A model generated the notes under the pieces. The model did no database searches. It was not told the origin of the DNA and saw only the letters and a list, made by a program, of their open reading frames with translations. A program made the position numbers and the translations under genes. From a bacterium (GTDB lineage Bacteria > Zhuqueibacterota > Zhuqueibacteria > Residuimicrobiales > Krinioviventaceae), in assembly GCA_963675755.2 (NCBI GenBank), contig CAXXMD010000003.1, forward strand, positions 1,568,001 through 1,632,000: a DNA stretch of 64,000 nt, given 5' to 3'. Below, piece after piece: positions 8,919-64,000 of this stretch. The first letter of the stretch is position 1, and every line of letters starts with the position of its first letter.

Positions 8919-9012
8919 ACGAATAACCTCCATGATTAAACAAACATCATTACAGTGTAAAAGATTTTGAACTGATATGCAATATTTTTTTTAAATCTGG
9001 TGTCTATTGCGG

Positions 9013-10054: not shown

Positions 10055-10078
10055 GAATGCTTTTTTATTATGTATAAT

Positions 10079-10113
10079 AAAAAAAACGTGACAGAGAAAA
10101 CCTCTGTCACGTT
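10079..10113 (-). terminator. Rho-independent terminator of the GH3/PA14 gene
   Basis: AACGTGACAGAG-5 nt-CTCTGTCACGTT, with a + strand A-run giving a U-tract on the - strand. Confidence 0.75.
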
Positions 10114-10139
10114 AAAATTCGAGTATATTTTTCTAGTAT

Positions 10140-35876: not shown

Positions 35877-35902
35877 AGATGGATATTTCCTTTCACATCA
35901 TT

Positions 35903-38115
<2,213 letters not shown>

Positions 38116-38116
38116 A

Positions 38117-39244
38117 TTATTGTGTCCGGGTTACGTTGCCGTTACTTACTAAAAAAACAGATTGATCTTTTTGTATGGCATCCAGGGATTTTATTGCTTC
38201 ATAATCCATACTGGTACCGGTTACAAAAGTTTGGCTTTTGCCAGAAAATAACGATAACACACTTTTACCACGATTTATGTCCAGTTCAGAATAAAGATCA
38301 TCTAACAACAGAATGGGCAAGGTACCGGTTTTTTCTTTTAATAAAACCGATTCTGCCGCTTTCAGGCTCACCAGTGCGCTTTTATGTTCACCGCGAGAGC
38401 CAAATCTTCTCAGTTCATTGTCATTTACGGATATAACAAATTCATCACGATGTGGTCCTACCAATGTAGTGCCCCTGCGTCTTTCCCGGTCAAAGGATTT
38501 TAAAAGCATATTGTTAAAAGTTAAAGTATTGTCACTATTTTCAGTTAATGGTACGCAGGGTTGGTATGTTACTTTTAGATCATGATTAGAACGGGTAAGG
38601 TCCTGATAAAATTGAAAAAGGTTTGAGTTCATATCCCGGGTCATTTTTTCTCGAGCTTCCATAACTTTCAAGCCTGTTTGGACCAGTTGATCGTTCCAGA
38701 TCTCCAACTGCGATTTACTGACACTTTTACCGGTCTGAAACAGGGTAAGGACCTGGTTCCGTTGTTTTACGATCCGTTCATATTTTTTTAAATCATCCAG
38801 GTAGCGTGGAGAGCATTGAGACAACAGAATGTTGAAAAATTTTCTGCGTTGAGCGGGGGCACCGGTGGTTACCACGTGGTCATCAGAAGTAAGCGCCACT
38901 ATTGGAAACTTGCCGATGAGCAATGAATACCGGGTTACAGGTTTTCCATCTACTTTGATCTTTTTTCCCAGATCTTTTGAATACCACACCTGAATTTTGC
39001 TGGATATGGAATTTTCATCAGTAAAGGTGCCGTCAAAGTTGTAATGATCTTCTTCGAATGGCACCATTTCCGTCTCTTCACGTGCACGAAAACTTTTTGC
39101 AAGGCAAAGTATATATATTGCTTCTGCTATATTGGTTTTGCCTTGCGCGTTGTCACCAAAAATGAAATTGGTGTTATCTGAAAAACTCAAATCTACCTGG
39201 TGCAAATTACGAAAACTGTGGATGTTGAGGTGCTGAATCAGCAT
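38117..39244 (-). CDS. recF: DNA replication and repair protein RecF
   Basis: FRNL, GDNAQGKTN, GPHRDE, GSRGE, LLLDDLYSELD. Confidence 0.96.
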   Translation of the reverse strand: MLIQHLNIHSFRNLHQVDLSFSDNTNFIFGDNAQGKTNIAEAIYILCLAKSFRAREETEMVPFEEDHYNFDGTFTDENSISSKIQVWYSKDLGKKIKVDGKPVTRYSLLIGKFPIVALTSDDHVVTTGAPAQRRKFFNILLSQCSPRYLDDLKKYERIVKQRNQVLTLFQTGKSVSKSQLEIWNDQLVQTGLKVMEAREKMTRDMNSNLFQFYQDLTRSNHDLKVTYQPCVPLTENSDNTLTFNNMLLKSFDRERRRGTTLVGPHRDEFVISVNDNELRRFGSRGEHKSALVSLKAAESVLLKEKTGTLPILLLDDLYSELDINRGKSVLSLFSGKSQTFVTGTSMDYEAIKSLDAIQKDQSVFLVSNGNVTRTQ

Positions 39245-39253
39245 TCACAGCTC

Positions 39254-40414
39254 TTATTCTTCATTTTCCTCAGTTTCCCCTTCTTCTTCGGGTGTTTCTT
39301 CATTAATCCGAATGGGCATGATCAGCATAAGAACATCTTCATCTTCTTTCTGATTCGCGGGGGAAACTACAGCCGCACTTGAGCTGTCTTTGAGCTTAAA
39401 AAGAACTTCTTTATCGTCAATATGACGTAAAACATCCAGCACGTATGCTGAATTATAGCCTACCTGCATCCATTCATCGCTAAATGAGGCTGGTATAGAT
39501 TCTTTAGCTTCTGCGCCAAATTCTATATCTTCAGAATGGATGGTGATTTCTGTTGGGGTTAGAACAAATCTAACCTGGTTGGTTAAAGAGCTTGAGAAAA
39601 TGGATACACGGCGCAGGGTAGAGATCAAAAGATCGCGATCTACCTTGAGCTCTTTATCATTGTCTGTTGGAATCACACGTTCATAATTGGGATATGTTCC
39701 GGTAATTAATTTAGAATATATAATGGTATTGTTGAATTCAAATTGAATGTGGTCTTCGCCAACCTGTATTTTTACTGGCTGTTCGCTGTTAAGGTTGCGT
39801 GACATAACATTCAGCGCTTTGGTTGGAATAATGATATTTAATTGGGTGTCGCCTGAAACACCGGTGTTTTTGTTAATAACCCGTGATAAACGGTGACCAT
39901 CAGTACCTACCAAAGTCATGCCGGTTGCCAGCATTTCCATATTAATACCAGTTAACGCTGGTCGTAATTCATCGTTTGAAACAGCAAACAATGTTTTGTC
40001 TGTCATGCGTGTCAAAAGCTCGCTGTCAATTTCAAAAGAAACATCACCCTCTTCTACATTGATACGGGGATAGTCTTCTTTTGGCTGAGAGGATATTTTA
40101 TATTCACCTTGTTCTGTTTTGATAACGATTTTGTCACCGATGCCGGAAAAAAGGTTCAATGGAACATCGGGCAGTTCGCGAACAATTTCAATCAACAGTT
40201 TCGCCGGGATGGCTACAGTACCATCCTCTTCGCCATTAACATCCAGAGATATAGTTACAGAAACTTCCAGGTCAGTACCGGTCAGGCGTAAACGGTTGCC
40301 TTCCAGTTCCATCAGAACACAAGTCAAAACAGAGATGGTTGTTTTTTGCGGTACAACTCCTACCATTTTATGTAATGCGTCGTAAAAGTCAGACTTGGCG
40401 ATGGTAAAGTTCAT
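39254..40414 (-). CDS. dnaN: DNA polymerase III beta sliding clamp
   Basis: GTDLE, RPALTG, TDGHRL, YPNYERVIP, LIMPIR; acidic tail. Confidence 0.97.
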   Translation of the reverse strand: MNFTIAKSDFYDALHKMVGVVPQKTTISVLTCVLMELEGNRLRLTGTDLEVSVTISLDVNGEEDGTVAIPAKLLIEIVRELPDVPLNLFSGIGDKIVIKTEQGEYKISSQPKEDYPRINVEEGDVSFEIDSELLTRMTDKTLFAVSNDELRPALTGINMEMLATGMTLVGTDGHRLSRVINKNTGVSGDTQLNIIIPTKALNVMSRNLNSEQPVKIQVGEDHIQFEFNNTIIYSKLITGTYPNYERVIPTDNDKELKVDRDLLISTLRRVSIFSSSLTNQVRFVLTPTEITIHSEDIEFGAEAKESIPASFSDEWMQVGYNSAYVLDVLRHIDDKEVLFKLKDSSSAAVVSPANQKEDEDVLMLIMPIRINEETPEEEGETEENEE

Positions 40415-40508
40415 GGTGCCTCCTTAACAAAATGAAAAACTGTAAAAAAATAATACTTTTCTTTGTAAATAACAAGAAAATAATATTATAGAGCAGTTTA
40501 TAAACGTG

Positions 40509-41858
40509 TTATAATTGAGCAATTTCAATTTTATTTTTTATCGTTTCCAGAGATTCTCTGATTTTATTGTCTTTTTTTATCATTTCTTCTGTACTGGTAA
40601 TGGCGTGGATCACCGTGCTATGATCTCTGCCGCCAAAATGCAAGCCTATGGTTTTTAATGAGCTGTCTGTCATGTTTTTGCACAAATACATGGCCATCTG
40701 GCGTGCTTGTACCACTTCTTTTTTGCGTGTCTTTGCGCGCAGCATATCATCCGGAATACCAAAATATTCGGATGTGGTTTTTTGAATAAACTCGATGCTA
40801 ATGGCTTTGATCTTGGGAATACAAACATCTTTTAGCAGGCTTTTGGCAAGATCAAGAGTAATATCCTGCCCGTTCAGGGATGAATAGGCCAACAAGCGAA
40901 TAAGGGCGCCTTCAAGTTCTCTAACATTTGTTGTTATATGTGTGGCGATAAAATGATAGATTTCTGGAGGAATGTCTAATCCGTTTTCTTCTGCTTTTTT
41001 TTGAAGAATAGCCTGGCGGGTTTCCATTTCCGGAAGTTGGATATCTACTACCAAACCCCATTGGAAACGGGAAATCAAACGTTCTTCAATGCCTTTTAAT
41101 TCTTTTGGGGGCCGGTCAGAAGATAGTACAATCTGTTTGCCTTTTTGGTGTAGGGTGTTGAAGGTGTGGAAAAACTCTTCTTGTGTTCGCTCCTTGTTGC
41201 CAAAAAACTGGATGTCGTCAACAATCAATAGATCAACGTTGCGGTAAAGGCTGCTGAATTCTGTTGTTTTGTTTTTTTGGATCGAGTTGATGAAATCCAT
41301 GGTAAAACGCTCACTATCAACATACAACACACGTGTGGCGTTTGTGTTGTATTTGCAATAGTTGCCTATTGCCTGAATAAGGTGTGTTTTTCCCAGACCT
41401 ACACCACCATAAACCACAAGTGGATTAAAGGTGGTTTTACCCGGTGATTTGCTAACCGCAAAGGATGCGGCTTTGGCAAATTTGTTGCAATCTCCTTCCA
41501 CAAAGCTGTCAAAGGTAAAACGTTCGCTCAGGTTGTCTTTGCCATTATGTGATTTTTGGGGAGCGGTTTTTTTCATGGACGGCAGTTGAACAGCCTGGGT
41601 TGCGGAATCCATAATCACGGAATAGAGCAGTTTGTAATCTGCTCCTAATACCTGAGTCATAGCCCGATTGATTACTTTGGAGTAGTGTTGTTCCAGCCAT
41701 TCATAAAAGAATTGGCTGGGTACCTGGATGGTTAAAGCGTGCTCCTCAATTTTAAAAGGACGAATCGGTTTAAACCAGGTTGCATAGCTGTTAGAGTTGA
41801 CGTTTTCTTTAATGATGCCCAGGATCTTGTCCCAGGTGGCTTGTAAATCTCCCTGCAT
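40509..41858 (-). CDS. dnaA: Chromosomal replication initiator DnaA
   Basis: GGVGLGKTHL, DDIQF, RLISRF, NVRELEGAL, FGGRDHSTVIHA; start placed at MQGD. Confidence 0.97.
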   Translation of the reverse strand: MQGDLQATWDKILGIIKENVNSNSYATWFKPIRPFKIEEHALTIQVPSQFFYEWLEQHYSKVINRAMTQVLGADYKLLYSVIMDSATQAVQLPSMKKTAPQKSHNGKDNLSERFTFDSFVEGDCNKFAKAASFAVSKSPGKTTFNPLVVYGGVGLGKTHLIQAIGNYCKYNTNATRVLYVDSERFTMDFINSIQKNKTTEFSSLYRNVDLLIVDDIQFFGNKERTQEEFFHTFNTLHQKGKQIVLSSDRPPKELKGIEERLISRFQWGLVVDIQLPEMETRQAILQKKAEENGLDIPPEIYHFIATHITTNVRELEGALIRLLAYSSLNGQDITLDLAKSLLKDVCIPKIKAISIEFIQKTTSEYFGIPDDMLRAKTRKKEVVQARQMAMYLCKNMTDSSLKTIGLHFGGRDHSTVIHAITSTEEMIKKDNKIRESLETIKNKIEIAQL

Positions 41859-41979
41859 ACGGCTTTCCGTTGTTTTATGTTCAGCAAATACAGTGCATTG
41901 TGTTGTCTGATTTTGTTTTGGGTTTAGGATATCAACATATAGGCTGATCAAGACGACAACACACAATTATATAAGGAAA

Positions 41980-52000: not shown

Positions 52001-52423
52001 TTTGTTTTAGTATATATAAACATAAAAAACAATAAGCATGATTTGTATTAATGGTTTATTATTGAAAACTTGAATCTAATTTCAAGCGTATTTGCAAATA
52101 ATTAAAGCACGAGAAATTTAGTATTCAATTTTTTTTACAGTGTCGTATTTTTCAAAAAATAATAAGAAATATATGTAATATTATTGTTCTGTATTTAAAG
52201 AATTGATATTATAAAACAAGACCTTTCAGGAACCCCTTCAATCGAGTAGGATTGGTTGTTCTTTGATATCGTCAAATCGTGCTTTATTTTTCTCTCATTC
52301 CTTTAGGTATCCTTTCGTTTTATTTTTCCGCAGATTCTTATTAATCCTCCTGATTTGACAGATATCTTTTAAAAAAACTAACAAATTTGCCTCCTGAATA
52401 ACAGCAAACCTGTGGAGGGTAAT

Positions 52424-52873
52424 ATGACAAAAGAACCAGAAGTCAGTCAGGGACGAAGACGGTTTATTGGATGGGGATTACTGTCCAGTTTATCAGCTTT
52501 TACAGCAATGTTGATATACCCGGTCGTTCGTTTTGTAATGCCACCGCCAATTGCCGAATCTGTTCAAAATTCTGTTAAAGCTGCTACAGTAAATGAACTC
52601 AAGCCTAATAGCGGCAAAAATTTTCCATTTAACAACAAGCCGGCAATTTTGATCCGGTTGCCAAACGGAGAATACAGAGCGTTTTCCGCTGTATGTACCC
52701 ATTTGCAGTGTACTGTACAATATAGAGAAGATTTTAAGCAAATATGGTGCGCATGTCATAACGCCCGGTTTGATTTGAATGGTAATATTGCATCAGGACC
52801 ACCACCGGCTCCTCTCGAGTCATTTGATGTTAACATAAGTGGTGACGATGTTATTGTTTCCAAACCAAGTTAG
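52424..52873 (+). CDS. Rieske 2Fe-2S subunit of a bc/b6f-type complex
   Basis: Tat GRRRF plus TM anchor; CTHLQC and CACH boxes; GPPPAPL. Confidence 0.95.
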
Positions 52874-52878
52874 GAGAG

Positions 52879-53961
52879 TTGTCCGTGAAAGTGGAAAAAA
52901 TAAAAAACTGGTTCAATGAGCGGCTGGATTTTAGCGGCATAGTAAAATTTTCAGAGAAAAAAGTAGTACCGGTGCACAAACACCATTTCTGGTATGGTAT
53001 AGGTGGTATTACTTTGTTTTTATATGTCATCCAGGTGTTGACCGGAATTCTTTTGCTTCTTTATTATCGTCCTTCTGCTGAATCTGCTTTTGAATCTGTA
53101 GAATTTATCATGACGTCAGTCAAGTATGGTTGGCTCATACGCTCAATTCACAGTTGGGGCGCAAATTTAATGATATTTTTTCTTTTTATTCACATGTTTA
53201 GCACTTTTTTTATGAAAGCATATCGCAAACCCCGTGAAATGACCTGGATCTCTGGTGCGTTTTTGCTTATTCTTGCCCTTGCATTTGGTTTTTCTGGCTA
53301 CCTGTTACCCTGGAACAAGCTTGCGTTTTTTGCTACCAAAGTTGGTACAGAAATGGCGGCCGTTGTTCCATTCATTGGGCATGAAATATTAATTTTTCTG
53401 CGAGGGGGAGAAGAGGTAACGGGTGCCACGCTTACCCGTTTTTTCGGTTTTCATGTTGCCCTGTTGCCGATGGTAACAGCGATATTCCTGTTAGTGCATT
53501 TGTTACTCATACAGGCACAAGGAATGAGTGTACCTCCTTCGCTAACACCTGAATATGAGAAAAATCCCAAGAGTATGAAATTCTTCCCTGATTTTATTTT
53601 GCGTGATGCAGTTGGCTGGTTACTTGTTCTGGGATTGCTGGGAGTGCTTGCGGCAATCTTTCCCTGGGAGTTGGGAGAAAAAGCAGATCCCTATGCATCT
53701 GCACCCTCGGGTATAAAACCCGAGTGGTTTTTCGTTTTTTTGTTTCAAACTTTGAAATATATACCTGGCAAGATTTTAATTTTCAATGGTGAATCACTTG
53801 CCATTATGGGTATTGCAGTGGGAATCGTTATCTGGATTTTTATTCCGTTCTTTGATAAAAGAGCGCAAGCGGGTAAACCCAGCCCTGCATTTACTGTAAT
53901 AGGTATTTTTCTTGTACTGTATATTCTGGTTCTAACAGCTATATCTTATATCTTTGATTAA
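52879..53961 (+). CDS. Cytochrome b (fused b6 + subunit IV type)
   Basis: [36 protein letters not shown] Qo motif. Confidence 0.95.
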
Positions 53962-53977
53962 AGAATGAGGTAATCTT

Positions 53978-55216
53978 TTGAAAACATATCGGATTGTTTT
54001 AGTTTTGATATTGTTGACAGGTTATTTTGCAGCAGGACAAGAGAACCATTGTATAACCTGCCATCAGGAGCTGGATGCTTCACTGGCTTTACCCGTTTCA
54101 GAAATGAAAGATGGTGTGCATTTTTTGTCGGGTATTTTGTGTAATGATTGCCATGGGGGTGATCCAACCACAGATGATCCTGAACTTTCTATGGATCCTG
54201 CAAAGGGATTTGTCGGTACACCGCAATTCAAAGATATTGCAATACTTTGTGCCGGCTGCCATAGCGATGCGGTTTATATGAGAAAATTTAATCCCAATGT
54301 TTCTACGGAACAATATAGCAGGTACCAAACAAGCCAGCATGGGATTTTACAGGCCCAGGGAGATATTAAAGTAGCAACGTGTACCAGTTGTCATGGTGTC
54401 CACAATATTAAAAAAGTCAGTGATCCTACAGCAACAGTTTATCCTGTGAATTTGGCTGACCAATGCGGCAAGTGCCATGCTGACAAGGAATATATGCAGG
54501 AATATGGGATAGACACACAACAGCTTGAGCATTACAAGAACAGTGTCCATGCAAAAATGCTTTATGATCAGGGGGATATTGGCGCACCAACCTGTAATGA
54601 TTGCCATGGTAATCATGGTGCTACTCCTCCCGGTATTACATCAATAGCATATGTGTGTGGTAATTGTCATATGATTCAACAGGAATATTTCACAGCCAGT
54701 CCACACAAAACGGGATTTGATGAAATGGGTTTTTCGGAATGTGGAGAGTGCCACGGTAATCATGACATTCAGCAAACTAACGATGAAATGCTGGGAGTGG
54801 ACGAGCCCGCCTTGTGTATAAACTGCCATGATTCTGATTCTGATGGTTACGCGGTTGCCATGAAATTAAGAACAGATATTGACTCATTAAAGGCAGTAAT
54901 TGGTATTGCAGAAAAAATGATTTTTGACGCCCAAAAGGCGGGCGTAGAAGTTGTAGATGAAGAAATGAATCTGGCAAAAGCTCAAGAGTCACTTGTTCAT
55001 TATCGCACAATGATTCATACTTTTTCTAAAGAAAAGGTGAATGAGACATTTAAAGCAGGATTAGAGTCTTCAGATAATGCGTATAAAATTGGTCAACAGG
55101 CATTAAAAGAACTGTCAAATCGTAGGATTTTATTGATCATTATGGTCTTGTTGACTCTTTTAGTGGCAACGTTGTTAATTTTTTATATCAAACAAAAAGA
55201 AAACCATATACATTGA
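53978..55216 (+). CDS. 9-heme cytochrome c with C-terminal helical stalk and TM anchor
   Basis: Nine CxxCH (CITCH to CINCH); signal peptide; C-terminal hydrophobic helix; TTG start. Confidence 0.92.
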   Translation: MKTYRIVLVLILLTGYFAAGQENHCITCHQELDASLALPVSEMKDGVHFLSGILCNDCHGGDPTTDDPELSMDPAKGFVGTPQFKDIAILCAGCHSDAVYMRKFNPNVSTEQYSRYQTSQHGILQAQGDIKVATCTSCHGVHNIKKVSDPTATVYPVNLADQCGKCHADKEYMQEYGIDTQQLEHYKNSVHAKMLYDQGDIGAPTCNDCHGNHGATPPGITSIAYVCGNCHMIQQEYFTASPHKTGFDEMGFSECGECHGNHDIQQTNDEMLGVDEPALCINCHDSDSDGYAVAMKLRTDIDSLKAVIGIAEKMIFDAQKAGVEVVDEEMNLAKAQESLVHYRTMIHTFSKEKVNETFKAGLESSDNAYKIGQQALKELSNRRILLIIMVLLTLLVATLLIFYIKQKENHIH

Positions 55217-55225
55217 GAGTAAAAT

Positions 55226-56842
55226 ATGGTAGAAGACAAATTTGATCTTTTGTTGAATCGTCTTGAGAGCCTGGAATCCAGGATCTCTACAATAGAAGGC
55301 TATTTGCGAATTGGGCCGGTAAAAACTGGCCAAAGTTCACACCCGGTTACCAAAAATGCAGATTCAGATCAGTCTTTGGAATTTACAATCGGCGAATTCT
55401 GGCTGGCACAGGTAGGTGCTGTTTTACTCATGCTGGGAGTGGCTTTTTTTATCAGTTACCCCATACCGGGTATTCCGGCCATTGCTGCAAGTTTATTGGG
55501 ATATGTTGCCGTGGCAGCGCTTATGGCATTGTCCCGATACTGGCAGGAAAATTATAATTATCTCTCACGGATTTTGTTTGGCGGAGGGCTGCTATTGATC
55601 TATTTTGCAACACTGCGGTTGCATTTTTATAGTACAGACCCTCTGATTTCTTCCACATTTCTGGGTGTATTACTGGTATTTATGGTATTAACGATTATAC
55701 TGTATATTGCGGTCAAGCGCAAATCCGGTTTTGTTGTTTCCATGGTCCTGCTGTTATTTCTGTTCTCCGGGCTGATTAGCGAATCGCCTTTGTTCTCTTT
55801 GGTGGTCATTACAATAACCGGCTTGATTACCGTTTCCCTGTTGTTTCGGACCAACTGGCATGGTGTTGCAACAAGTGGATTGTTTTTTGTTTATTGTGCA
55901 CATTTGTTGTGGCTTTTGAATAATCCGCTTGTTGGCAATACATTACAGCCGGCACCAGGCCATGGTTTTAATCTTTTTTTCCTGGCAATGTATGCGTCTG
56001 CATTTGCTGTAATTAACCGGTTTCGTAATCCGGAACAATATCCATTGTTTTTTGAAATTTTGATTTCGGTTGTTAACAGTCTCGGGATTTTTCTTGTTGG
56101 TGCCTTGAACATTTTGTTTTATTTCAAGGAACAGTCGAGTATTTTGGGGTTTTTAACATTTTTATATTTCATTATTGCCGCAATAATAAACTACAAGCAC
56201 ACCAAAGGAAATTTTTCTGCACCCATAACCGCATCTTTTGGATTTATTGCGCTTTCTTTTTCAATTTTTACCCAGTTTAACAATCCTGATTATTTCTTTT
56301 GGCTGGCTTTACAGAGTTTAATGGTGATTGTTTTTGCGTTATGGTTCAGGTCTCGTTTAATAGTTGTTGCAAATATATTCATTTTCCTGTTTATATATGC
56401 ACTGTATCTGATTATATCTGAACCGAATGGATTGATCAATTTGAGTTTTGCGTTGTCGTCTTTGGCAAGTGCGAGAATTTTAAACTGGAAAAAAGAGAGA
56501 CTTTTAATCAAAACCGATATGATGCGAAATTTATATCTGGTTTGTGCATTTTTTATTGTTCTCTATGGCCTCTTCCATGCGGTACCTGAAAACATTGTCA
56601 GTCTCTCATGGATGGGTGCTGCAATATTTTATTTTGTGCTGAGTCTGCTTTTAAAAAATATCAAATATCGCTGGATGTCGATATTGACCGTATTTGCTAC
56701 AGTATTGCATGTGATCTTTTATGATATGTCTAACGTAGCTTCAGGATTCAGAATTGTTGTTTTCCTTGCAATTGGTCTTCTGATTTTGTTGTTTTCTGTC
56801 GTATATTCAAGATATAATAAAAAATTATCACGAATTCACTAA
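55226..56842 (+). CDS. DUF2339-like polytopic membrane protein
   Basis: N-terminal coiled RLESLESRI, LEFTIGEFWLAQVG, many TM helices, C-terminal RIVVFLAIG. Confidence 0.7.
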   Translation: MVEDKFDLLLNRLESLESRISTIEGYLRIGPVKTGQSSHPVTKNADSDQSLEFTIGEFWLAQVGAVLLMLGVAFFISYPIPGIPAIAASLLGYVAVAALMALSRYWQENYNYLSRILFGGGLLLIYFATLRLHFYSTDPLISSTFLGVLLVFMVLTIILYIAVKRKSGFVVSMVLLLFLFSGLISESPLFSLVVITITGLITVSLLFRTNWHGVATSGLFFVYCAHLLWLLNNPLVGNTLQPAPGHGFNLFFLAMYASAFAVINRFRNPEQYPLFFEILISVVNSLGIFLVGALNILFYFKEQSSILGFLTFLYFIIAAIINYKHTKGNFSAPITASFGFIALSFSIFTQFNNPDYFFWLALQSLMVIVFALWFRSRLIVVANIFIFLFIYALYLIISEPNGLINLSFALSSLASARILNWKKERLLIKTDMMRNLYLVCAFFIVLYGLFHAVPENIVSLSWMGAAIFYFVLSLLLKNIKYRWMSILTVFATVLHVIFYDMSNVASGFRIVVFLAIGLLILLFSVVYSRYNKKLSRIH

Positions 56843-56901
56843 CACATGGAAGGATTATTGTTTATATTTTAATATAAAATCACAAGTAAAAGGGGCAAAA
56901 T

Positions 56902-58404
56902 ATGAAATTGCGTCTACCTTTCAGTTATTACAATACGATTTCGTATGCTGGTACTGCTTTGGCGTTAATAGCATTTTTTATGTTTGTATTTTTATATGTT
57001 TTGTCATCCATTACCGGAGCAGATAAAGCATATATGGGACTCGTGATTTTTATTCTCATTCCTTCATTTATTATACTCGGTCTTTTATTGATTCCTGCCG
57101 GAATGATATTAAAAATTAGAAAAATCAAAAAGTTCGGAGAAGGAGAGCACGAAGATTTTCCTGTTCTCAATTTAAATCTGCCCAATCACCGGAACGGAGT
57201 GATTATTTTTACAATTGTGACCTGTATATTTTTCTTTCTTTCAGCATTGGGGAGTTATGAGGCGTATCATTATACCGAGTCGAACCGGTTTTGTGGTACA
57301 TTGTGTCATTCTTTAATGATTCCCGAGTATACCGCTTATCAGGCGTCACCTCATGCACGTGTACATTGTGCGGAATGTCATATTGGAACGGGTGCGAGCT
57401 GGTGGGTAAAATCAAAAATGAGTGGTTTAAAGCAGGTTTACGCAACATTGACCAATACTTATCCTAAACCTGTACCTACACCCATAGAGAATCTTCGCCC
57501 GGCCCGTGAAACGTGTGAAGAATGTCACTGGCCGCAAAAAATATATGGAAAGCAGCAGCGTATAGAATACTATTATCTTGCTGATGAAGAGAATACGCGC
57601 TGGGAGATTGACATGCTGATGAATACCGGTGGTGGAAATCCTAGCATGGGTCAATCGACGGGTATTCACTGGCATATTAATCCTGATATTAAAATCGAGT
57701 ATATCACTACAGATGAAAAAAGAGAAACCATTCCTCAGGTTATTCTGACCAATAAAGTTACCGGCAAGGTTACAACGTATAACAATACCGATGAACCTCT
57801 TGACGAGGATGCAGAATATACTGAAAGACGCACAATGGATTGTATTGACTGTCATAACCGCCCCAGTCATATTTATAATGATCCTTCCAGCTTTGTGAAT
57901 GTTGCAATTGCAAGTGGTCAGATAGATGTTTCTTTACCCATGGTAAAGCAAGCTGCTATTGAAGCATGTATACAGGAATATGAATCAACAGAACTGGCAA
58001 TGGAAGGTATTAAAGAGTATTTGACAACTTTTTATGAAGAGAATTATCCGGATGCCATATTAAACAAGGGTAAACTGCTAAAATCTATCATTGGTGTACA
58101 GGAAGCTTTTGCAAAAAACATTTTCCCGGAAATGAATGTAACCTGGGAGGGCTACCCAAACCATATAGGTCATATGACCTCAAATGGATGTTTCAGGTGT
58201 CATGATGATTTACATGAAAGTGATGATGGTGATGTTATATCGAAAACCTGTAATGATTGTCATTTAATAACGGCACAGGGTAAAGAAGAGGATGTTCAAT
58301 TTACATCCACCCGAAATGCTCTTGATTTTGTTCATCCGGTTGATATTGATGGAGAATGGCAATATCTTAATTGCAGCGAGTGTCATTCATCTCCGCCAAT
58401 ATAA
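56902..58404 (+). CDS. NapC/NirT-related 7-heme membrane quinol dehydrogenase (ImcH-like)
   Basis: Three N-terminal TM helices; CGTLCH (CX3CH) plus six CxxCH; TESNRFCG, KMSGLKQVY, LRPARETCEECH, MDCIDCHNRPSH. Confidence 0.88.
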   Translation: MKLRLPFSYYNTISYAGTALALIAFFMFVFLYVLSSITGADKAYMGLVIFILIPSFIILGLLLIPAGMILKIRKIKKFGEGEHEDFPVLNLNLPNHRNGVIIFTIVTCIFFFLSALGSYEAYHYTESNRFCGTLCHSLMIPEYTAYQASPHARVHCAECHIGTGASWWVKSKMSGLKQVYATLTNTYPKPVPTPIENLRPARETCEECHWPQKIYGKQQRIEYYYLADEENTRWEIDMLMNTGGGNPSMGQSTGIHWHINPDIKIEYITTDEKRETIPQVILTNKVTGKVTTYNNTDEPLDEDAEYTERRTMDCIDCHNRPSHIYNDPSSFVNVAIASGQIDVSLPMVKQAAIEACIQEYESTELAMEGIKEYLTTFYEENYPDAILNKGKLLKSIIGVQEAFAKNIFPEMNVTWEGYPNHIGHMTSNGCFRCHDDLHESDDGDVISKTCNDCHLITAQGKEEDVQFTSTRNALDFVHPVDIDGEWQYLNCSECHSSPPI

Positions 58405-58454
58405 CGGAATAAATAGATTAATGATATGGTTCTAAAATATAGCAAAGCTACCTA

Positions 58455-58638
58455 ATTCACGCTACGTTGGGTTGCTGACAGGGAGCGACTCAATGTGAAT
58501 ACGGATGCCCTGTTGAAAGGAGGTGATCTTATTATTCATAGTACGATAATAAGAGCCTCCGGTGAAGCTTGTTAGCACCAGGTAATCCGGATGCTTATAG
58601 TTTAATAACCCCGCTTATACATTTGGCGGGGTTTTTTT
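58455..58638 (+). ncRNA. Candidate structured ncRNA (pseudoknot, extended SD, terminator)
   Basis: Nested stems, loop GACAGGG complementary to CCCTGTT, GAAAGGAGGTGATC, terminal terminator hairpin. Confidence 0.55.
58607..58638 (+). terminator. Rho-independent terminator
   Basis: AACCCCGC...GCGGGGTTTTTTT. Confidence 0.8.
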
Positions 58639-58682
58639 ATATAATGATTGTAATAGTTTCAAGTTATTTATACATTGTAAAC

Positions 58683-59768
58683 ATGAAAAAATGTATGTTA
58701 AAAATTAATGTGAGCGCAATAGTTTTATTGCTGCTATTCGTTCTTGCGCATGCACAGGATGAAAACAGAAACAGTCTGGTTGCACTTCCATATGCTTATT
58801 TTACACCGGAAACGGATATTGCGGCAGGCGTAGGAAGTGTTTATTCTTTTAGAGCTGCAGACAGCAAGCCGGATATTCGCCCATCGAACATCAAGGTTGC
58901 ACTGACGTTTACACAGAGAAAACAGTTATTGTTTGCCATACAACCCGAGCTTTATTTTAATAACGAAGCATGGCTTGTAAACGGTACCTATAATTATTAT
59001 AAATATCCTGATAAATACTGGGGGGCAGGCATCAATACTCCCGATGAAAACGAAGAGGATTTTACTCCATCGTTAATCCGGACTTTTACCAACATCCAAA
59101 AGCGAATTTTACCGGGATTGTATACCGGTATCCGCTACCAGTTTGAGTATATTGCGTTAAAAGAAACAGACCCCAATGGTGTATTGCAGTACAAAACAAT
59201 TCCGGGAAGTGGTGACGGGGCGGCATCGGGTTTGGGTATTCTTGTAAACTGGGATACACGTAATCATACGTATTTTCCAACGAGTGGTCATTATCATCAG
59301 TTTTATGCGGTTTCTTTTGGTTCTGCAATTGGTAGTGATTTTGATTTTACAATGTACACCCTGGATCTGCGCCACTATATGCCGATATTCAAGAGCCATG
59401 TGCTTGCCTTTCACAGTTATAATATCTTTATTGACGGAAATCCCCCTTTTCAGATGATGGGATTACTTGGCGGTTCTTATTGGATGCGGGGTTATTATTT
59501 TGGCCGGTATCGGGATAATAACATGATAACCATGCAAACCGAGTATAGATATCCATTATTCTGGCGCTTTGGCGGTGTATTTTTTGCCGGTTTGGGTGAT
59601 GTTGCGTGCAAGATTGACCATTTTCACTTGCGGGATTTTAAAGTCAGTTATGGTGCGGGAATTCGGTTCATGTTTGATACACGTGAAAAAATCAATGCCC
59701 GATTGGATCTGGGTTTTGATGAGTGGGGAACCATGTCTATTTATGCATTGGTGGTTGAAGCGTTCTAG
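58683..59768 (+). CDS. Omp85/BamA-TamA family beta-barrel protein lacking POTRA domains
   Basis: Signal peptide; ALPYAYFTPET, WDTRN, LGGSYWMRGY, GAGIRF, RLDLGF, terminal EAF. Confidence 0.85.
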   Translation: MKKCMLKINVSAIVLLLLFVLAHAQDENRNSLVALPYAYFTPETDIAAGVGSVYSFRAADSKPDIRPSNIKVALTFTQRKQLLFAIQPELYFNNEAWLVNGTYNYYKYPDKYWGAGINTPDENEEDFTPSLIRTFTNIQKRILPGLYTGIRYQFEYIALKETDPNGVLQYKTIPGSGDGAASGLGILVNWDTRNHTYFPTSGHYHQFYAVSFGSAIGSDFDFTMYTLDLRHYMPIFKSHVLAFHSYNIFIDGNPPFQMMGLLGGSYWMRGYYFGRYRDNNMITMQTEYRYPLFWRFGGVFFAGLGDVACKIDHFHLRDFKVSYGAGIRFMFDTREKINARLDLGFDEWGTMSIYALVVEAF

Positions 59769-59791
59769 TCACCCAAGTTTTAAATATAAGT

Positions 59792-59826
59792 AAAAAGGCA
59801 AAGGATAACTCCTTTGCCTTTTTTTT
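59792..59826. terminator. Bidirectional terminator between convergent genes
   Basis: AAAAAGGCAAAGGA-TAAC-TCCTTTGCCTTTTTTTT. Confidence 0.85.
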
Positions 59827-62617
59827 ATTTATATTGTGTCAGCATCGCCCAAATGATCATAACCACCAGGCTTAGACCTAAAATTAGGAAAAAGAAACCA
59901 AAAATACGGGACAGAATGTTTAGCCATCTTGGTGGCTCTGTTTCACGTGTTAAACCTTCCAGTTCTCCGTTTTCTTTTAATTGCTGATATTCTTTGGGCC
60001 TTTCCAGTTTCCATTCCTCATAGGGGACTTTGCCGGTAAAGATAACCGGATCCATGGGAAATTTTTGAGGTCTGAAATGCGTGTTAAAAAAGTGGATTGT
60101 AAAAATAAATCCGGTTGCCAGCAAGGCTTCATCACTGTGAATGATTGTAGCTACATTAATCAGGTAGCCCGGTAAAAAGCGGGTAAAGAATTCCGGAAAC
60201 CAGAGTACAAGTCCAGTTGAGCCAATAACCGCAACACCCCAAAATACTGCAAAGTAATCAAATTTTTCCCAATAGGTCCATCTGCCGTAATGGGGAGCTT
60301 TTTTCCGACCCAGGAACCAGAGGATGGTATGAAAAAAGTCTATAAAATCCTGTTTTGTGGGAATCATTCCGTTTTTGTTAAACATGAATTTCCAGTAATT
60401 CATGCCTCTCTTTTTAGCTTCACGACCAATGTATACAAAGTGGAGAATAAAATAAAGGAACGTAATGATTGCACAAATTCTATGAACAATACCGGCACCT
60501 TCAGCGCCACCAAAGAACTGGCTGATATTATAGGCCCACTCGTAACCGGCAAATTTCAAGCTCATTCCAGTGAGAGCAAGACCAAAAAAGCTTACTATGA
60601 CCATTAAATGCAGTATTCTGGGTAGCCTGCCAAAACGAACAATCCATCGTCTGGGATGTTTGGCCAGATGTTTGTGAATACGAATGCGTTCCCGAATAGA
60701 CCGGGGGATCCATAATATGGTATGAATTCCAAAAAAGGCAAAAACGCCAATTACCAGAAAGGTCATAAACCAGAAAGTGTAAAATAATGCTGGGTATTTG
60801 TCGCGATTGTGATGCGTTGCATGTGTAAGATAGCCGGTAAACTTGCGGTTTGAATTGGGATGACATTGTTTACAGGTTTCTATGATATTGTCCCGACTGA
60901 GTGTTGAAGCTATGTTTGTAGGAGGTAATATATTATGCGATCCATGACAATCGGAACATTTGGCTGCTTTTTCTGAACCCAGTTTAGACACTTTGCCGTG
61001 ATAGGTTTCAAAATAGGTTTCAGTTACATCCTCATGACAGTGACCGCACTGGCCCAGGATCTGCGAACGAAAATCGTCACGGTCTACACGTTCAATTTCG
61101 TGTGATTTGTGGCAATCGTTACAGGCCGGAAGCTCCTTGTCTGTTTTGGAAACCAGGGGGCTGTGAATAGAGGATTTAAACGTCTCGTAAATGCCCAGGT
61201 GACATTTTGAACAGGTTTTTCCTACATTGGTATCATGCACACTTGATTCAGGATTACTTGCCGGCAGTGCGTTATGAGGTGTATGGCAATCGCTGCAAAC
61301 GGCAGATACCATAAGTCCGCTGTCAAACAAGCCTTTGCCGTGAATACTCATGGTGTAATGTTCAATAACCTGGGTTTCTTTACCAGTATACCTGACTGCA
61401 GCTTTTTCTCCTTCCCGGTGGCATTGCGCGCAAAGGGCCGGAATATTGCGGGTAAAGGTTGGGGAGTCTATGTTGTCTCCGGCAAGGATCTTGTGATCAC
61501 CATGACAGTTGGTACAGTTTGGTGCATTTTTATCACCTTTGGCCAGTAATTCACCGTGAATGCTGGTGAAGAAATTGTCAGCCTGTTCAACATGACAGAT
61601 GGAGCAATCTACAGGCCCAGAGTCTTCACAAACAGGACGCTTGCCCCGGCTGACGTTTGTGTGACATTTGATACATGAAATGTTTTGGCCGTGAATGGAA
61701 TGCTGCAAATCACTAGCGTCTACATATAATGAATCTATAGTTCCGTCTTCCATTTTGCGGGTAAGATCTTGTTTTTCGTGACAGTTCATACAATAGTGAT
61801 CTGTAAATTCTTCCGCGTAAAAAACACGGCGTATTTTATGAGGTGAATGACAGTCCACGCAGGCGGGTATGGCATTGGGTTGTTTTTCCCACAATTCCCC
61901 TTTGATCACTTTTTGGTGTACCCGTTCAATCTGCGCGTGGCATTGCATACAGGTACCAGCAATATTGTCTCTATGGATGGAGGATTTGGGATTTGTATGC
62001 GGCAACACATTGTGAGATGTGTGGCAGTTGGTGCAAACGGCTGTAACAATAAGTCCACCCTGAAATAAACCTTCTCCATGAATAGACATGGTATAGTTTT
62101 GAATAATGTCTGACTGGGTGATTCTGTGCCGGCGAGCAACCTCGCTGTCTTCTCTGTGACATTGTCCACATAGCATGGGGATATTCATAACATATGTGGG
62201 TGATTCCGGATTTGTGTTTTTTAAAATCGTATGCTTGTTATGACAATCAACACAGACTGGTGCGTCTTTGTCACCCTTTGTATGTGCAATACCGTGGGTG
62301 CTGAGAGCCAGGTTTTCACCAATGTCATCATGACACATGTTACAATCCACTTTTTCAAGCGGCGTGTCATGCGGAAAATCTTCAACATCTGCGTCAACAT
62401 GGCACGATACACATCCATTTTCTTCATGGACGGTACCCTTTAATGTGTTTTCCGGTATAAAAATAGAAACCGTTTTCCCATCCTTTTCCATGGTAAGGGT
62501 AGCGTCGGAATGACACATTAAACAGTCTTCATCTTCTGCTGAAAAAGAAGGGAGAAACATGAGGAGCATAAGCAATGAAACAAGAACAACACGGATTAAA
62601 TTTGAGGGCTTTTCCAT
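59825..62617 (-). CDS. 19-heme cytochrome c fused to HydC/FdnI-type cytochrome b (CbcL-like)
   Basis: 19 CxxCH counted; C-terminal TM domain with RILHL, IVHRI, YWEKFDYFAVFWG, IIHSDEALLA, HFFNTHFRP; start 62617 or 62626. Confidence 0.92.
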   Translation of the reverse strand: MEKPSNLIRVVLVSLLMLLMFLPSFSAEDEDCLMCHSDATLTMEKDGKTVSIFIPENTLKGTVHEENGCVSCHVDADVEDFPHDTPLEKVDCNMCHDDIGENLALSTHGIAHTKGDKDAPVCVDCHNKHTILKNTNPESPTYVMNIPMLCGQCHREDSEVARRHRITQSDIIQNYTMSIHGEGLFQGGLIVTAVCTNCHTSHNVLPHTNPKSSIHRDNIAGTCMQCHAQIERVHQKVIKGELWEKQPNAIPACVDCHSPHKIRRVFYAEEFTDHYCMNCHEKQDLTRKMEDGTIDSLYVDASDLQHSIHGQNISCIKCHTNVSRGKRPVCEDSGPVDCSICHVEQADNFFTSIHGELLAKGDKNAPNCTNCHGDHKILAGDNIDSPTFTRNIPALCAQCHREGEKAAVRYTGKETQVIEHYTMSIHGKGLFDSGLMVSAVCSDCHTPHNALPASNPESSVHDTNVGKTCSKCHLGIYETFKSSIHSPLVSKTDKELPACNDCHKSHEIERVDRDDFRSQILGQCGHCHEDVTETYFETYHGKVSKLGSEKAAKCSDCHGSHNILPPTNIASTLSRDNIIETCKQCHPNSNRKFTGYLTHATHHNRDKYPALFYTFWFMTFLVIGVFAFFGIHTILWIPRSIRERIRIHKHLAKHPRRWIVRFGRLPRILHLMVIVSFFGLALTGMSLKFAGYEWAYNISQFFGGAEGAGIVHRICAIITFLYFILHFVYIGREAKKRGMNYWKFMFNKNGMIPTKQDFIDFFHTILWFLGRKKAPHYGRWTYWEKFDYFAVFWGVAVIGSTGLVLWFPEFFTRFLPGYLINVATIIHSDEALLATGFIFTIHFFNTHFRPQKFPMDPVIFTGKVPYEEWKLERPKEYQQLKENGELEGLTRETEPPRWLNILSRIFGFFFLILGLSLVVMIIWAMLTQYK

Positions 62618-62788
62618 AATGCACATCTCGTCATTGGTTTATGTTTTTGTGGAATTTATATCAAGTCAGCCAGCCTTGATACAGGACGAGTATGTCTTGG
62701 CAGTCCGTAAAAGAGGTCAAATTGATTGGAATTGTGTTAGAATACCATCATAACAAGGATTCCAACACAAGGCTCTATTTGGTTACAC

Positions 62789-62806
62789 TTGTTCTTTTTT
62801 TCACAA
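62789..62806. promoter_or_regulatory. Weak Rex-like operator upstream of the 19-heme gene
   Basis: TTGTTCT-TTTT-TTCACAA vs Rex consensus TTGTGAA-N4-TTCACAA (one perfect half-site). Confidence 0.35.
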
Positions 62807-63020
62807 AATTGGGTCCTTTATATTCAATATAAGAAAGCATTGAATAGACGCAATACCATTTTTTGAAATTATTTAGAAAATATGCATAATGCGCTTGAGC
62901 TTTTGTTTTGATTATTCCCAATAGCCCAAAAGTAATTATAAAAATGCCGCTTTTTGCTGTACAAAATCAATCATGTTGTTTTTTTATTTATTATTATGGT
63001 TAAAACGATTAAATTTAAAG

Positions 63021-63038
63021 TTGTAAAATAATTCACAA
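63021..63038. promoter_or_regulatory. Rex-like operator upstream of the 7-heme gene
   Basis: TTGTAAA-ATAA-TTCACAA, one mismatch to the Rex consensus, 16 nt before the ATG. Confidence 0.55.
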
Positions 63039-63054
63039 ACCAAAAGAAGAGAAA

Positions 63055-64000
63055 ATGATTTCAAGAAAAATAATATTAACTACTCTACTGTTGCTACTCT
63101 CTTTTTCGGTTACATTTGCCCAATATGATGAACTGTGTCAAGCATGTCATGCTGACAACAGTATTGAGCCGGTGACAGAAAAAGGTGAGATACTTGATTT
63201 ATATCTGCCTGTTGAAGTATACCAGAGTGCTACCCATGGTGAAATGGAATGTACCATGTGTCATATTGAATCGGAAGAAGGTGGTTTTGAAGAATTTCCT
63301 CACTTGCTTGATGCAGCCTCTACGCCCATGTGTCTTGATTGTCATGGTGACGAATTTGAAGAGCAGCATGCAGCGTATGAGCTTAGTTACCATGCTGAAA
63401 AAATCCAGGATTTTAACTGTTTCAAATGTCACGATATTCACAGAGCGAACTTTGATTCGTTAACCCAGGACCTGGAACATGAAATAACATATTATAATGA
63501 CAATTGTTACAACTGTCATGTTGATTCTGCAATTTATGCATATTTATCTGGTAAAGATGCATCAAAACTTGATCTCTCTCATTCATTTTTACCAAGTCGT
63601 GAAATCCACTGGCGCTCAGTTCGTTGTGTGGAATGTCATACACCCGCAGAAGATGCTAATGTACATCATATCGTAGCAGATGACGAAGCGCAGCATAAAT
63701 GCGTTTCCTGTCACTCTCAAAATTCCATATTAACCCACAAGCTGTATCAGTCTGCTACTGCATCTGAGGATGATCAGTTACATCGTATTTTGAATTATTA
63801 TTTGTTCCAGAATGCGTATGTTATAGGTGCAACCCGGTTAACGTTTGTTGATAATTTTATCATTTTATTATTTCTTGCCGCGTTGGCAGGTGTGTTAACT
63901 CATGGTGCGTTACGTATTTATTTTACACGCAATATTAGAAAAAACGGTCCGGAATACGAACTGCATTCCGAATATATTTATAAATTAAACATTCGTATAT
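63055..64000 (+). CDS. 7-heme cytochrome c apparently fused to cytochrome b (CbcA/CbcB-like), runs off window end
   Basis: Hand translation MISRKIILTTLLLLLSFSVTFAQYDELCQACH..., with CTMCH, CLDCH, CFKCH, CYNCH, CVECH, CVSCH, then NAYVIGATR, a TM helix, HGALR and YIYKLNIRI; absent from ORF track. Confidence 0.88.
   Translation, partial: MISRKIILTTLLLLLSFSVTFAQYDELCQACHADNSIEPVTEKGEILDLYLPVEVYQSATHGEMECTMCHIESEEGGFEEFPHLLDAASTPMCLDCHGDEFEEQHAAYELSYHAEKIQDFNCFKCHDIHRANFDSLTQDLEHEITYYNDNCYNCHVDSAIYAYLSGKDASKLDLSHSFLPSREIHWRSVRCVECHTPAEDANVHHIVADDEAQHKCVSCHSQNSILTHKLYQSATASEDDQLHRILNYYLFQNAYVIGATRLTFVDNFIILLFLAALAGVLTHGALRIYFTRNIRKNGPEYELHSEYIYKLNIRI

Follow-up and report, generated by a model that had tools for sequence, protein, structure and literature searches.

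At the end of the 64,000-nucleotide stretch analysed here (the window), a bacterium of the KSB1 phylum carries an island of eight genes, g1–g8 (window 52412–64000, continuing in the genome to window-equivalent 64593), six of which encode parts of cytochrome-based quinone-reacting enzymes. The most probable reading (about 0.65) is that the island is a respiratory hub of parallel menaquinol:cytochrome c oxidoreductases in the inner membrane, from which electrons most likely leave the cell via surface cytochromes. The conserved unit of the island consists of a Rieske/cytochrome b/9-haem cytochrome c module with a DUF2339 membrane protein (g1–g4), an ImcH-type cytochrome (g5), and a 19-haem CbcL-like cytochrome c/b fusion (g7); an outer-membrane barrel (g6) and a 7-haem cytochrome c/b fusion (g8) are genus-specific neighbours. 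Gene content, family-level architecture, and synteny, which we describe first, establish this unit.

Composition and setting of the island

Genes g1–g8 were taken from the open reading frame (ORF) listing and from domain scans (Table 1). The genome comprises 6.48 Mb in three contigs (C1–C3) with a G+C content of ~40%, and the window corresponds to C3:1568001–1632000. An earlier note, made from the letters of the window, had placed in the island a Rieske protein with a cytochrome b and a 9-haem cytochrome c, a 7-haem NapC-like protein with three transmembrane (TM) segments, a 19-haem c/cytochrome b fusion, and a 7-haem c/cytochrome b fusion, with at least 42 haem motifs in total. ORF listing, motif counts, and domain scans confirm the first group as g1–g3. 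The NapC-like protein is g5, with six CXXCH motifs, one CGTLCH motif, three TM segments, and a NapC/NirT domain, and the 19-haem fusion is g7, with 19 CXXCH motifs and an FdnI-like b domain. The 7-haem fusion is present as well (g8, seven CXXCH motifs), but its b domain lies wholly outside the window, the gene extending 593 bases past the end. The haem motifs of g1–g8 indeed add up to 42 (41 CXXCH and one CXXXCH). Genome-wide, 22 of the 10,841 ORFs of at least 80 residues contain three or more CXXCH motifs, and four of these 22 fall inside the 12 kb of the island, a haem density far above chance. The genes for the DUF2339 protein and the Omp85-like barrel, neither of them a cytochrome, are additional to that first description.

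The setting is also as the earlier note had it. The genes dnaA, dnaN, recF, gyrB, and gyrA occupy positions 33441–41966, so that the island is origin-proximal, with dnaA ~10 kb upstream, and GH92, GH3, and sulfatase genes at positions 261–12803 provide a polysaccharide-degrading context. The closest named homologues of g5 (67%) and g7 (71% and 65%) are labelled candidate division KSB1, followed by Calditrichota and other labels of the Fibrobacterota–Chlorobiota–Bacteroidota (FCB) group.

The island is not a single operon. The gaps within g1–g4 are 5–16 bases and that between g4 and g5 is 59 bases; g7 lies on the opposite strand, converging with g6 on a bidirectional terminator and diverging from g8. 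A sigma-70 promoter scan of the island was uninformative for this bacterial group. Downstream of g8 are an acyl-CoA synthetase gene and then unrelated genes.

Table 1 Features of the island (positions in the window; aa, amino acids)
Feature	Description	Position	Strand or location	Basis
g1	Twin-arginine translocation (Tat)-exported Rieske [2Fe-2S] subunit, 153 aa	52412..52873	+	Pfam Rieske E 6.1e-14, 52.1 bits (cut-off 20.3)
g2	b6-type cytochrome b with fused subunit-IV-like C-terminal part, 360 aa	52879..53961	+	PF00033 E 6.4e-54; PF13631 E 2.4e-41; PF00032 E 6.4e-07
g3	9-haem cytochrome c, 412 aa; signal peptide and a membrane anchor at the C terminus	53978..55216	+	9 CXXCH; TM 378–407
g4	DUF2339 polytopic membrane protein, 538 aa	55226..56842	+	PF10101 34.1 bits (cut-off 33.6)
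g5	Predicted ImcH-family inner-membrane heptahaem quinol dehydrogenase, 500 aa	56902..58404	+	CX3CH and 6 CXXCH; 3 TM; PF03264
g6	Omp85-family outer-membrane barrel without POTRA, ORF of 399 aa	58569..59768	+	PF01103 E 8.3e-16
Hairpin	Bidirectional intrinsic-terminator-like hairpin	59792..59823	between convergent g6 and g7	14-pair stem; T runs on both strands
g7	Fusion of a 19-haem cytochrome c with an FdnI-like dihaem cytochrome b, 933 aa	59825..62626	-	19 CXXCH; CbcL/MtrH/MtoC family, 19-haem subclass
g7–g8 spacer	Divergent intergenic region, 428 bp	62627..63054		Putative promoter region for both genes
g8	Fusion of a 7-haem cytochrome c with a PhsC-like dihaem cytochrome b, 512 aa	63055..64000, continuing to window-equivalent 64593	+	7 CXXCH; CbcA–CbcB-like

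Conservation across the phylum

Conservation was examined in a sample of 121 genomes of the phylum. One unpublished genome (G105) is included in the raw match counts for g5, g2, and the cytochrome with a type IX secretion system (T9SS) tail described below, and excluded from the tallies of gene pairs and triples. Matches to g5 (imcH) at E ≤ 1e-40 occur in 62 genomes, and the orthologue group numbers 48 with G105 excluded. At the same threshold, g7 has matches in 54 genomes, 30 of them with full-length 19-haem orthologues, and g2 in 50, of which 36 fall in the orthologue group. g4 is matched in 29 genomes at E ≤ 1e-20, a count in which orthologues are not separated, and g8 in 16 at E ≤ 1e-30, with full-length orthologues in four.

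The core genes lie close together in many of these genomes. imcH and the cytochrome b gene are both present in 33 genomes and share a contig in 21, in every case within 10.6 kb. imcH and the 19-haem gene are both present in 26 genomes; 17 have them on one contig, where they are no more than 12.5 kb apart in 15 and no more than 5 kb apart in 10. The full triple is found on one contig in 11 genomes, and the span is at most 10.6 kb in 10 of the 11.

Gene order (g1-g2-g3-g4...imcH) was checked in 16 related loci that had been retrieved because of hits, and g3, g4, and imcH form one string in 11 of them. Greedy ORF picking mislabelled g1 or g2 in two of the 16, where the g2 search shows the cytochrome b gene. 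A small gene for a 4-haem c554-like protein is present in six loci, and an extra split CbcL-like pair, composed of a 10- or 11-haem cytochrome c and a separate b subunit of ~240 residues, in five. In many relatives this split pair is located directly upstream of the fused 19-haem gene, the split and fused forms standing side by side.

Two relatives delimit the conserved unit. Genome G017, from another genus of the same family, contains g1-g2-g3-g4-g5 followed by a small ORF and by two cytochrome genes, the first for a 19-haem protein (77% identity) and the second for an 11-haem CbcL-like protein; g6 and g8 are both absent. The same-genus genome G001 contains g5-g6-g7-g8 and the synthetase gene at 86–97% identity, without g1–g4. 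Homology to G001 stops at window position 52008 and resumes at 56863, defining a clean 4.85-kb indel (52009–56862) that removes exactly g1–g4. The ImcH of G001 is only 86% identical, the flanking proteins being 91–98% identical, and searches with the g2 and g4 queries found neither gene elsewhere in that genome. The earlier note had made conservation of the cluster a check on its proposal; the core recurs across the phylum, the whole island, with its genus-specific g6 and g8, does not.

The Rieske/cytochrome b module and its DUF2339 companion

The products of g1–g3 resemble known Rieske/b6-type complexes that have a multihaem c subunit: the Rieske protein is Tat-exported, the b6-type cytochrome b includes a subunit-IV-like part, and a multihaem cytochrome c stands in for cytochrome c1 or f. 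The g1 translation contains an RRRF Tat motif and the cluster motifs CTHLQC...CACH; it also matches the PetC TM anchor weakly, and the NCBIfam models for b6f and bc1 Rieske proteins below their cut-offs. g2 begins 5 bases beyond the end of g1 and encodes His-x13-His and His-x14-His pairs, a PEWF sequence corresponding to the PEWY-type motif of the Qo site, and seven to eight hydrophobic segments. The cysteine that we take to bind haem ci in b6f is apparently replaced in g2.

The g3 product is composed of cytochrome c7, c3, and paired-CXXCH domains and has no match among PDB sequences at E ≤ 0.01. In relatives, g1 orthologues lie upstream of the cytochrome b gene and g3 orthologues (39–57% identity) downstream of it. 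Judged from its sequence and position, g3 would replace cytochrome c1/f in the complex.

The Rieske-containing Cbc complex that the earlier note ascribed to Geobacter found no confirmation in the available accounts. The closest curated model for such a b subunit in Geobacter is ExtP of the Ext/Cbc6 system (NCBIfam NF040969). g2 scores 212.8 bits against it, under the equivalog cut-off of 290, and scores higher, at 239.5 bits, against the generic cytochrome b6 model, again under the cut-off (325). g1 has no match to the ExtO model. Therefore, by curated models, g1 and g2 are not Ext orthologues. A further difference from ExtP and other Rieske/b6 systems is the conserved DUF2339 companion.

The DUF2339 protein is a conserved companion of both the Rieske/cytochrome b module and imcH: in the 29 genomes that have it, its gene is nearly always located between the two. 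Its sequence has 41 invariant residues across 13 orthologues. The AlphaFold2 model of g4 (predicted local distance difference test score 79.6) consists of an N-terminal helix followed by 18 helices. A Foldseek search of the PDB with this model returned no match at E ≤ 0.001, and a wide VIA-align comparison of the fold returned designed or generic helical repeats only.

The ImcH-type cytochrome

g5 displays all four traits given for the ImcH family in the available parts of the primary descriptions: three N-terminal helices, an adjacent atypical CX3CH motif, six CXXCH motifs, and homology to NapC/NirT (Levar et al. 2014, PMC4251993; Zhong & Shi 2018, PMC6295460). Its CX3CH motif is at residue 131 (132 in the numbering of Table S3 of the latter paper) and its CXXCH motifs at 156, 205, 314, 430, 450, and 491; hydropathy places the TM segments at 11–41, 40–75, and 97–120. 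Geobacter ImcH (GSU3259) has 507 residues, haem motifs at 132, 156, 205, 311, 428, 448, and 486, and TM segments at 13–35, 45–67, and 100–122, and ImcH proteins of the Geobacter group are ~495–519 residues long (PMC6295460). All seven haem motifs of g5 are thus within 5 residues of those of GSU3259, and the two proteins share a length of ~500 residues, three TM segments, a CX3CH motif by the membrane domain, and six CXXCH motifs. The ImcH look-alike of the earlier note stands as a near position-for-position match in motifs and TM segments, the assignment being made by architecture and published tables.

The NapC/NirT model PF03264 matches residues 98–187 of g5 with 40.9 bits (cut-off 24.1), and the structure of NrfH (2j7a_C) matches at E 0.003. 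A search of the genome for NrfA (PF02335) gave no match, so g5 is not the NrfH partner of an NrfA. Geobacter imcH is described as monocistronic in the available part of its description (PMC4251993); g5 lies instead behind the Rieske, cytochrome b, 9-haem, and DUF2339 genes.

The g5 family is large, with 714 representative clusters at E ≤ 1e-30. Among the retrieved homologues, 150 representatives are 33–52% identical to g5, and the cluster labels are 'Deltaproteobacteria', 'Acidobacteriota', KSB1, and Calditrichota only. Membership of the ImcH family goes with ~31–49% identity to Geobacter ImcH. Published ImcH family members come from Caldithrix, Melioribacter, Ignavibacteria, and Draconibacterium, among others (PMC6295460). 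The motif signatures of Table S3 matched the retrieved homologues in one of 19 rows (Rokubacteria-type), and the GSU3259 signature is absent from every retrieved homologue. The published imcH primer (Levar 2014, Table 1), used as a pattern on the genome collection, matched two unrelated metagenome-assembled genomes, about the chance number for a 20-mer. One representative, P0202, has the most Geobacter-like motif spacing; it was rejected as a Geobacter ImcH, as it sits among Vicinamibacteria.

The 19-haem cytochrome c/b fusion

The b domain of g7 aligns with FdnI (1kqf_C) at E 2.1e-05, and four histidines of g7 (H673 and three others) align with FdnI histidines that we take to be the FdnI haem ligands. 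Matches to the NCBIfam FdnI models (E 4e-09) and to Pfam Ni_hydr_CYTB (25.1 bits; cut-off 30.1) are below the cut-offs. A simple hydropathy scan finds segments at ~611–642, 667–694, 710–735, 791–811, and 901–933, and a sixth, expected at ~825–847 from published entries of the CbcL/MtrH/MtoC family, whose b domains have about six TM helices, falls under the threshold. The spacing of the haem motifs displays an internal eight-haem duplication.

Proteins of the CbcL/MtrH/MtoC family are 416–1034 residues long and have an N-terminal region of 3–23 CXXCH motifs fused to a C-terminal b-type membrane domain (PMC6295460). g7 shares this layout, and its 19 motifs and 933 residues are inside the family range. 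CbcL itself (GSU0274) has 9 haems and 619 residues (PMC6295460), in contrast to g7. The first nine motifs of g7 (at 35, 72, 95, 125, 153, 198, 226, 256, and 279) are at positions identical to those of a 932-residue Marinifilaceae entry, and the remainder are shifted by 2. Exactly 19 CXXCH motifs are found in 103 of the 120 best g7 homologues; none of the 10 rows of Table S2 was matched in length and motif signature among these 120. The likeness to CbcL that had been claimed for g7 takes a more specific form: the protein is laid out like the 19-haem family members already in print, an assignment made, as for g5, by architecture and published tables.

Genus-specific neighbours

The b domain of g8 matches the PhsC model NF011582 over residues 271–503 (E 1.5e-49, 168.8 bits, equivalog cut-off 204) and PF01292 with 75.3 bits (cut-off 30.1). 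A TM segment spans residues 259–289, and histidines 283, 317, 335, 352, 466, and 480 are invariant in four orthologues and one paralogue. In the available part of a preprint (Joshi et al. 2021), Geobacter CbcBA consists of a seven-haem CbcA, whose C-terminal helix gives a histidine to the b haems, and of CbcB, a four-helix 'thiosulfate reductase-like' dihaem cytochrome b. Compared with this description of CbcBA (GSU0593/GSU0594), g8 likewise has seven c haems, a histidine-bearing TM helix (H283), and then a thiosulfate reductase-like four-helix dihaem b domain; CbcBA is encoded by two genes, whereas g8 is one fused polypeptide. An ESM Atlas search with g8 shows that fusions of multihaem cytochrome c with Ni_hydr_CYTB (b561-type) domains are common in many phyla.

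The context of g8 differs from that of Geobacter cbcBA, for which the available part of the source describes a sigma-54/BccR context. No sigma-54 site (TGGCAC-N5-TTGC with at most one mismatch) was found near g8, including the g7–g8 spacer, and the genes adjoining g8, namely g7 and the acyl-CoA synthetase gene, do not include a BccR-like regulator or CbcC/D/E-like genes. In genomes G005 and G014, g8 orthologues (44–46%) adjoin the same synthetase gene and imcH is missing from the neighbourhood, so the place of g8 next to the hub in this genus looks accidental. The CbcBA look-alike of the earlier note thus holds in its seven haems and PhsC-like b domain, as far as CbcBA is described in the available source, and fails in two respects: g8, with full-length orthologues in only four of the 121 genomes, does not belong to the conserved cluster, and its regulatory context is different.

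Elsewhere in the genome, at C3:241643–247648, a gene of the octahaem tetrathionate-reductase family (TIGR04315, 569 bits, cut-off 375) is followed by a gene for an 877-residue 7-haem/PhsC-like b fusion paralogous to g8, and then by two sulfur-transport genes, the product of one of which includes a rhodanese domain. The group looks like a self-contained module for sulfur-compound respiration. Its first gene also answers the proposal of the earlier note to look for octahaem reductases.

The signal peptide of the barrel protein g6 begins at ORF residue 39, which makes ~58683 the probable start, and the C-terminal end is ...VVEAF. An orthologue is found in the same-genus genome (96%) and in none of the other 27 related loci examined. 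By this distribution, g6 is probably a neighbour outside the system. Another barrel protein is encoded in the origin region upstream of the island (window 29960–32644), where an 894-residue patatin-like phospholipase is fused to POTRA domains and an Omp85 barrel.

Candidate routes to the cell surface

The earlier note had proposed that acceptor modules and porin–cytochrome conduits be sought in the genome, and candidates of both kinds are present. At C3:547639–550260 is the gene for an 873-residue 9-haem cytochrome with a FlgD-Ig-like domain and a T9SS type-A sorting tail (TIGR04183, 33.5 bits, cut-off 23). Its best PDB match, over a short stretch, is OcwA (6I5B, E 5.1e-09), a terminal reductase with nine haems on the cell surface of Thermincola potens (Costa et al. 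2019, PMC6703420). The two have nine haems in common; the T9SS-tailed cytochrome differs in coming from a Gram-negative-type cell, in being ~350 residues longer, and in its additional FlgD-Ig-like domain and T9SS tail. The export system is encoded as well, with a SprA/Sov match and two PorU matches above cut-offs and dozens of T9SS-tailed proteins. A second T9SS-tailed cytochrome (C3:61697–63631) has 644 residues and 5 haems.

In relatives, a 9-haem protein of ~900 residues is the commonest further neighbour of imcH. In 12 of the 16 cases in which the T9SS-tailed 9-haem orthologue and imcH share a contig, at most 12.5 kb separates them, and the orthologue stands beside imcH in further relatives. 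The frequent proximity of a T9SS-tailed OcwA-like cytochrome gene to imcH favours an outward electron route. In one relative (G004), imcH lies between the gene for a T9SS-type 9-haem cytochrome and a gene 60% identical to a gene of the present genome with a cytochrome c assembly (CcsA/CcmF-type) domain.

At C2:1674455–1680488, genes for 20-, 25-, and 10-haem cytochromes precede a gene for a 532-residue protein, a group that is a candidate porin–cytochrome conduit. The 532-residue protein has a signal peptide, many windows of alternating hydrophobicity (beta-strand-like), and the C-terminal end ...GYRF, with no family match. Another gene string encodes a 9-haem cytochrome, a rhodanese, an outer-membrane-protein-like product, and a 12-haem cytochrome. 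Three cytochrome c assembly genes in the genome settle a further proposed check, that for haem maturation. A single haem-copper oxidase is encoded near the alternative complex III (ACIII) locus, separate from the island.

Other cytochrome genes were seen in passing. An ORF with 36 haems is cut short by the end of contig C1 (C1:387390–390048), and another on the same strand, with 6 haems and a signal peptide, by the start of C2 (C2:1–523); the two are probably one giant cytochrome gene with at least 42 haems, split by an assembly gap. At C2:480818–482233, a 471-residue protein is an unusual fusion of a NapC/NirT-type cytochrome region (PF03264, 63.6 bits) with a domain of the formylglycine-generating-enzyme/sulfatase-modifying kind (PF03781, E 2.9e-40). 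At C3:1119753–1122416, an 887-residue protein begins with a membrane region weakly similar to subunit I of cytochrome bd, includes a cbb3-type monohaem domain, and ends in a multihaem region with eight CXXCH motifs.

Proposed electron flow

From these protein sequences and their homologues we infer quinol oxidation, the direction of electron flow, its extracellular destination, and any division of labour by redox potential. In the first module, the g1–g3 complex would oxidise menaquinol and pass one electron to the anchored 9-haem chain, with the DUF2339 protein alongside. In the second, g5 would oxidise quinol at the periplasmic face, as NrfH and ImcH do. In the third, g7 would pass electrons from a quinol site via two b haems to its long periplasmic haem wire. 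A fourth enzyme, g8, which is beside the core only in this genus, may do the same with its own quinol site, pair of b haems, and long periplasmic haem wire. The periplasmic haem chains would then deliver to the T9SS-exported OcwA-like cytochrome and to multihaem cytochromes associated with porins, the genes for which lie away from the island in this genome and next to imcH in many relatives.

Several observations weigh against an outward-directed hub. The proteins g5, g7, and g8 were assigned to families by their architecture, by generic domain models, and from published tables, and the matches of the b domains of g2, g7, and g8 to specific NCBIfam and Pfam models are under the curated cut-offs, except for PF01292 in g8. 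The whole of g1–g4 is missing from the same-genus genome, which makes the Rieske module dispensable. The gene for the T9SS-tailed 9-haem cytochrome and the porin-like clusters are ~1 Mb or more from the island, and the T9SS gene is likewise ~1 Mb off in G001. CbcL/MtoC-family proteins occur also in Fe(II) oxidisers, according to the available part of the 2018 survey (PMC6295460), so the direction of flow is not fixed by family. The paralogue of g8 beside an octahaem tetrathionate-reductase-family gene indicates that such fusions can serve soluble acceptors. Finally, physiological evidence for metal or electrode respiration in the phylum was not seen in the literature searched.

Alternative explanations

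The strongest alternative, which we still regard as doubtful, is that the four modules co-evolved as a set graded by potential, each for its own window of acceptor potential, with the energy-conserving Rieske/b complex highest, ImcH neutral, and the c–b fusions lowest. The model for this is Geobacter, which relies on ImcH at potentials above ~-0.1 V, on CbcL at lower ones, and on CbcBA at those below -0.21 V, as given in the available parts of the published accounts. The island contains one look-alike of each of these three along with a Q-cycle-type complex, and the core triple is conserved. Moreover, the b domains are of two subfamilies, FdnI-like in g7 and PhsC-like in g8, a contrast that the available part of Joshi et al. 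draws between CbcL and CbcBA. g8, however, is the weak member of such a set: it is outside the conserved cluster, its conserved neighbour is the acyl-CoA synthetase gene, and it has neither a sigma-54 site nor a BccR-like regulator. The Rieske module is lost in the sister species, the extra split CbcL-like pairs of many relatives (five of 16 loci) look like modular turnover rather than a fixed set, and potential-dependent behaviour of non-Geobacter homologues was not found in the literature searched. By analogy with the Fdn and Phs enzymes, we assume that the four modules should differ in the proton-motive force made or spent. This energetic analogy is the only basis for the idea of grading.

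An unlikely alternative is that the quinol dehydrogenases are wired to particular acceptors in the periplasm, feeding reductases of soluble substrates such as the octahaem tetrathionate-reductase family, ExtKL-like sulfur/selenium cytochromes, and others. The g8 paralogue stands directly behind an octahaem tetrathionate-reductase-family gene and ahead of sulfur-transport and rhodanese genes, an ExtKL-like cytochrome is encoded beside a rhodanese in the genome, and the island contains no gene for an outer-membrane conduit, g6 being an Omp85-type barrel of this genus only. All this would fit periplasmic acceptors, but none of the 28 related loci has a catalytic reductase gene in or adjoining the conserved core. 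What recurs beside the core is genes for multihaem cytochromes, and one of these proteins has a surface-export tail and resembles the surface reductase OcwA.

It is more improbable still that the hub is bidirectional or runs in reverse, taking up electrons from Fe(II), reduced humics, or cathodes and reducing the quinone pool. Such a role has been proposed for CbcL/MtrH/MtoC homologues of Fe(II) oxidisers in the available part of the survey (PMC6295460), and a Rieske/cytochrome b complex could run backwards with proton-motive force. ImcH homologues, on the other hand, have so far been implicated in quinol oxidation only (PMC6295460), the genome setting is that of a polysaccharide-degrading heterotroph, and a separate ACIII/haem-copper oxidase locus is available for aerobic respiration. 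That unrelated cytochrome genes without a functional link have come together by chance, which the use of both strands with a terminator between, the lineage-specific g6 and g8, and the g1–g4 indel between two species of one genus might suggest, is very hard to credit and for the core is largely refuted by synteny, since cytochrome b, DUF2339, imcH, and 19-haem genes are co-located again across at least six families of the phylum.

Discussion

The earlier note had called the island a candidate for an undescribed system, which does not hold for its parts. Each of the proteins g1–g8 is a new member of a described family, and homologues were catalogued in 2018: ImcH and CbcL homologues outside Geobacter, in many phyla, with 19-haem forms and co-occurrence in one genome, and imcH and cbcL with neighbouring locus tags in several Desulfuromonadota table entries (Zhong & Shi 2018, PMC6295460). 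The recurring combination, in contrast, was not found in the literature searched. A search covering part of the literature found neither the combination of Rieske/b, DUF2339, ImcH, and 19-haem genes, or an account of it in KSB1, nor a link of the hub to T9SS-tailed cytochromes. The available parts of published KSB1 genome accounts contain no mention of ImcH or multihaem cytochromes, and CbcL and Rieske proteins are also unmentioned in those parts in which they were looked for.

A wider and more speculative proposal would extend the scheme to the FCB group, including KSB1. An energy-graded hub, composed of the Rieske/b and 9-haem proteins with DUF2339 as a new subunit, ImcH, and the 19-haem CbcL-type protein, might deliver to OcwA-like nonahaem cytochromes placed on the surface by the T9SS, and would then constitute an undescribed extracellular route.

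The poor conservation of multihaem cytochromes makes extracellular electron transfer hard to predict in uncultured bacteria. Across this phylum, three modules of known families that react with quinones have stayed together, accompanied by an unstudied DUF2339 protein and often by a secretion-tagged OcwA-like cytochrome. If the hub feeds an outward route, it could serve as a compact marker by which to recognise, from their genomes, abundant FCB-group heterotrophs of sediments that respire minerals, humics, or electrodes. It would also offer a natural test of energy-graded quinol oxidation beyond Geobacter, for which the loss of the Rieske module in a sister species is a ready natural comparison, and would give DUF2339 its first functional context.

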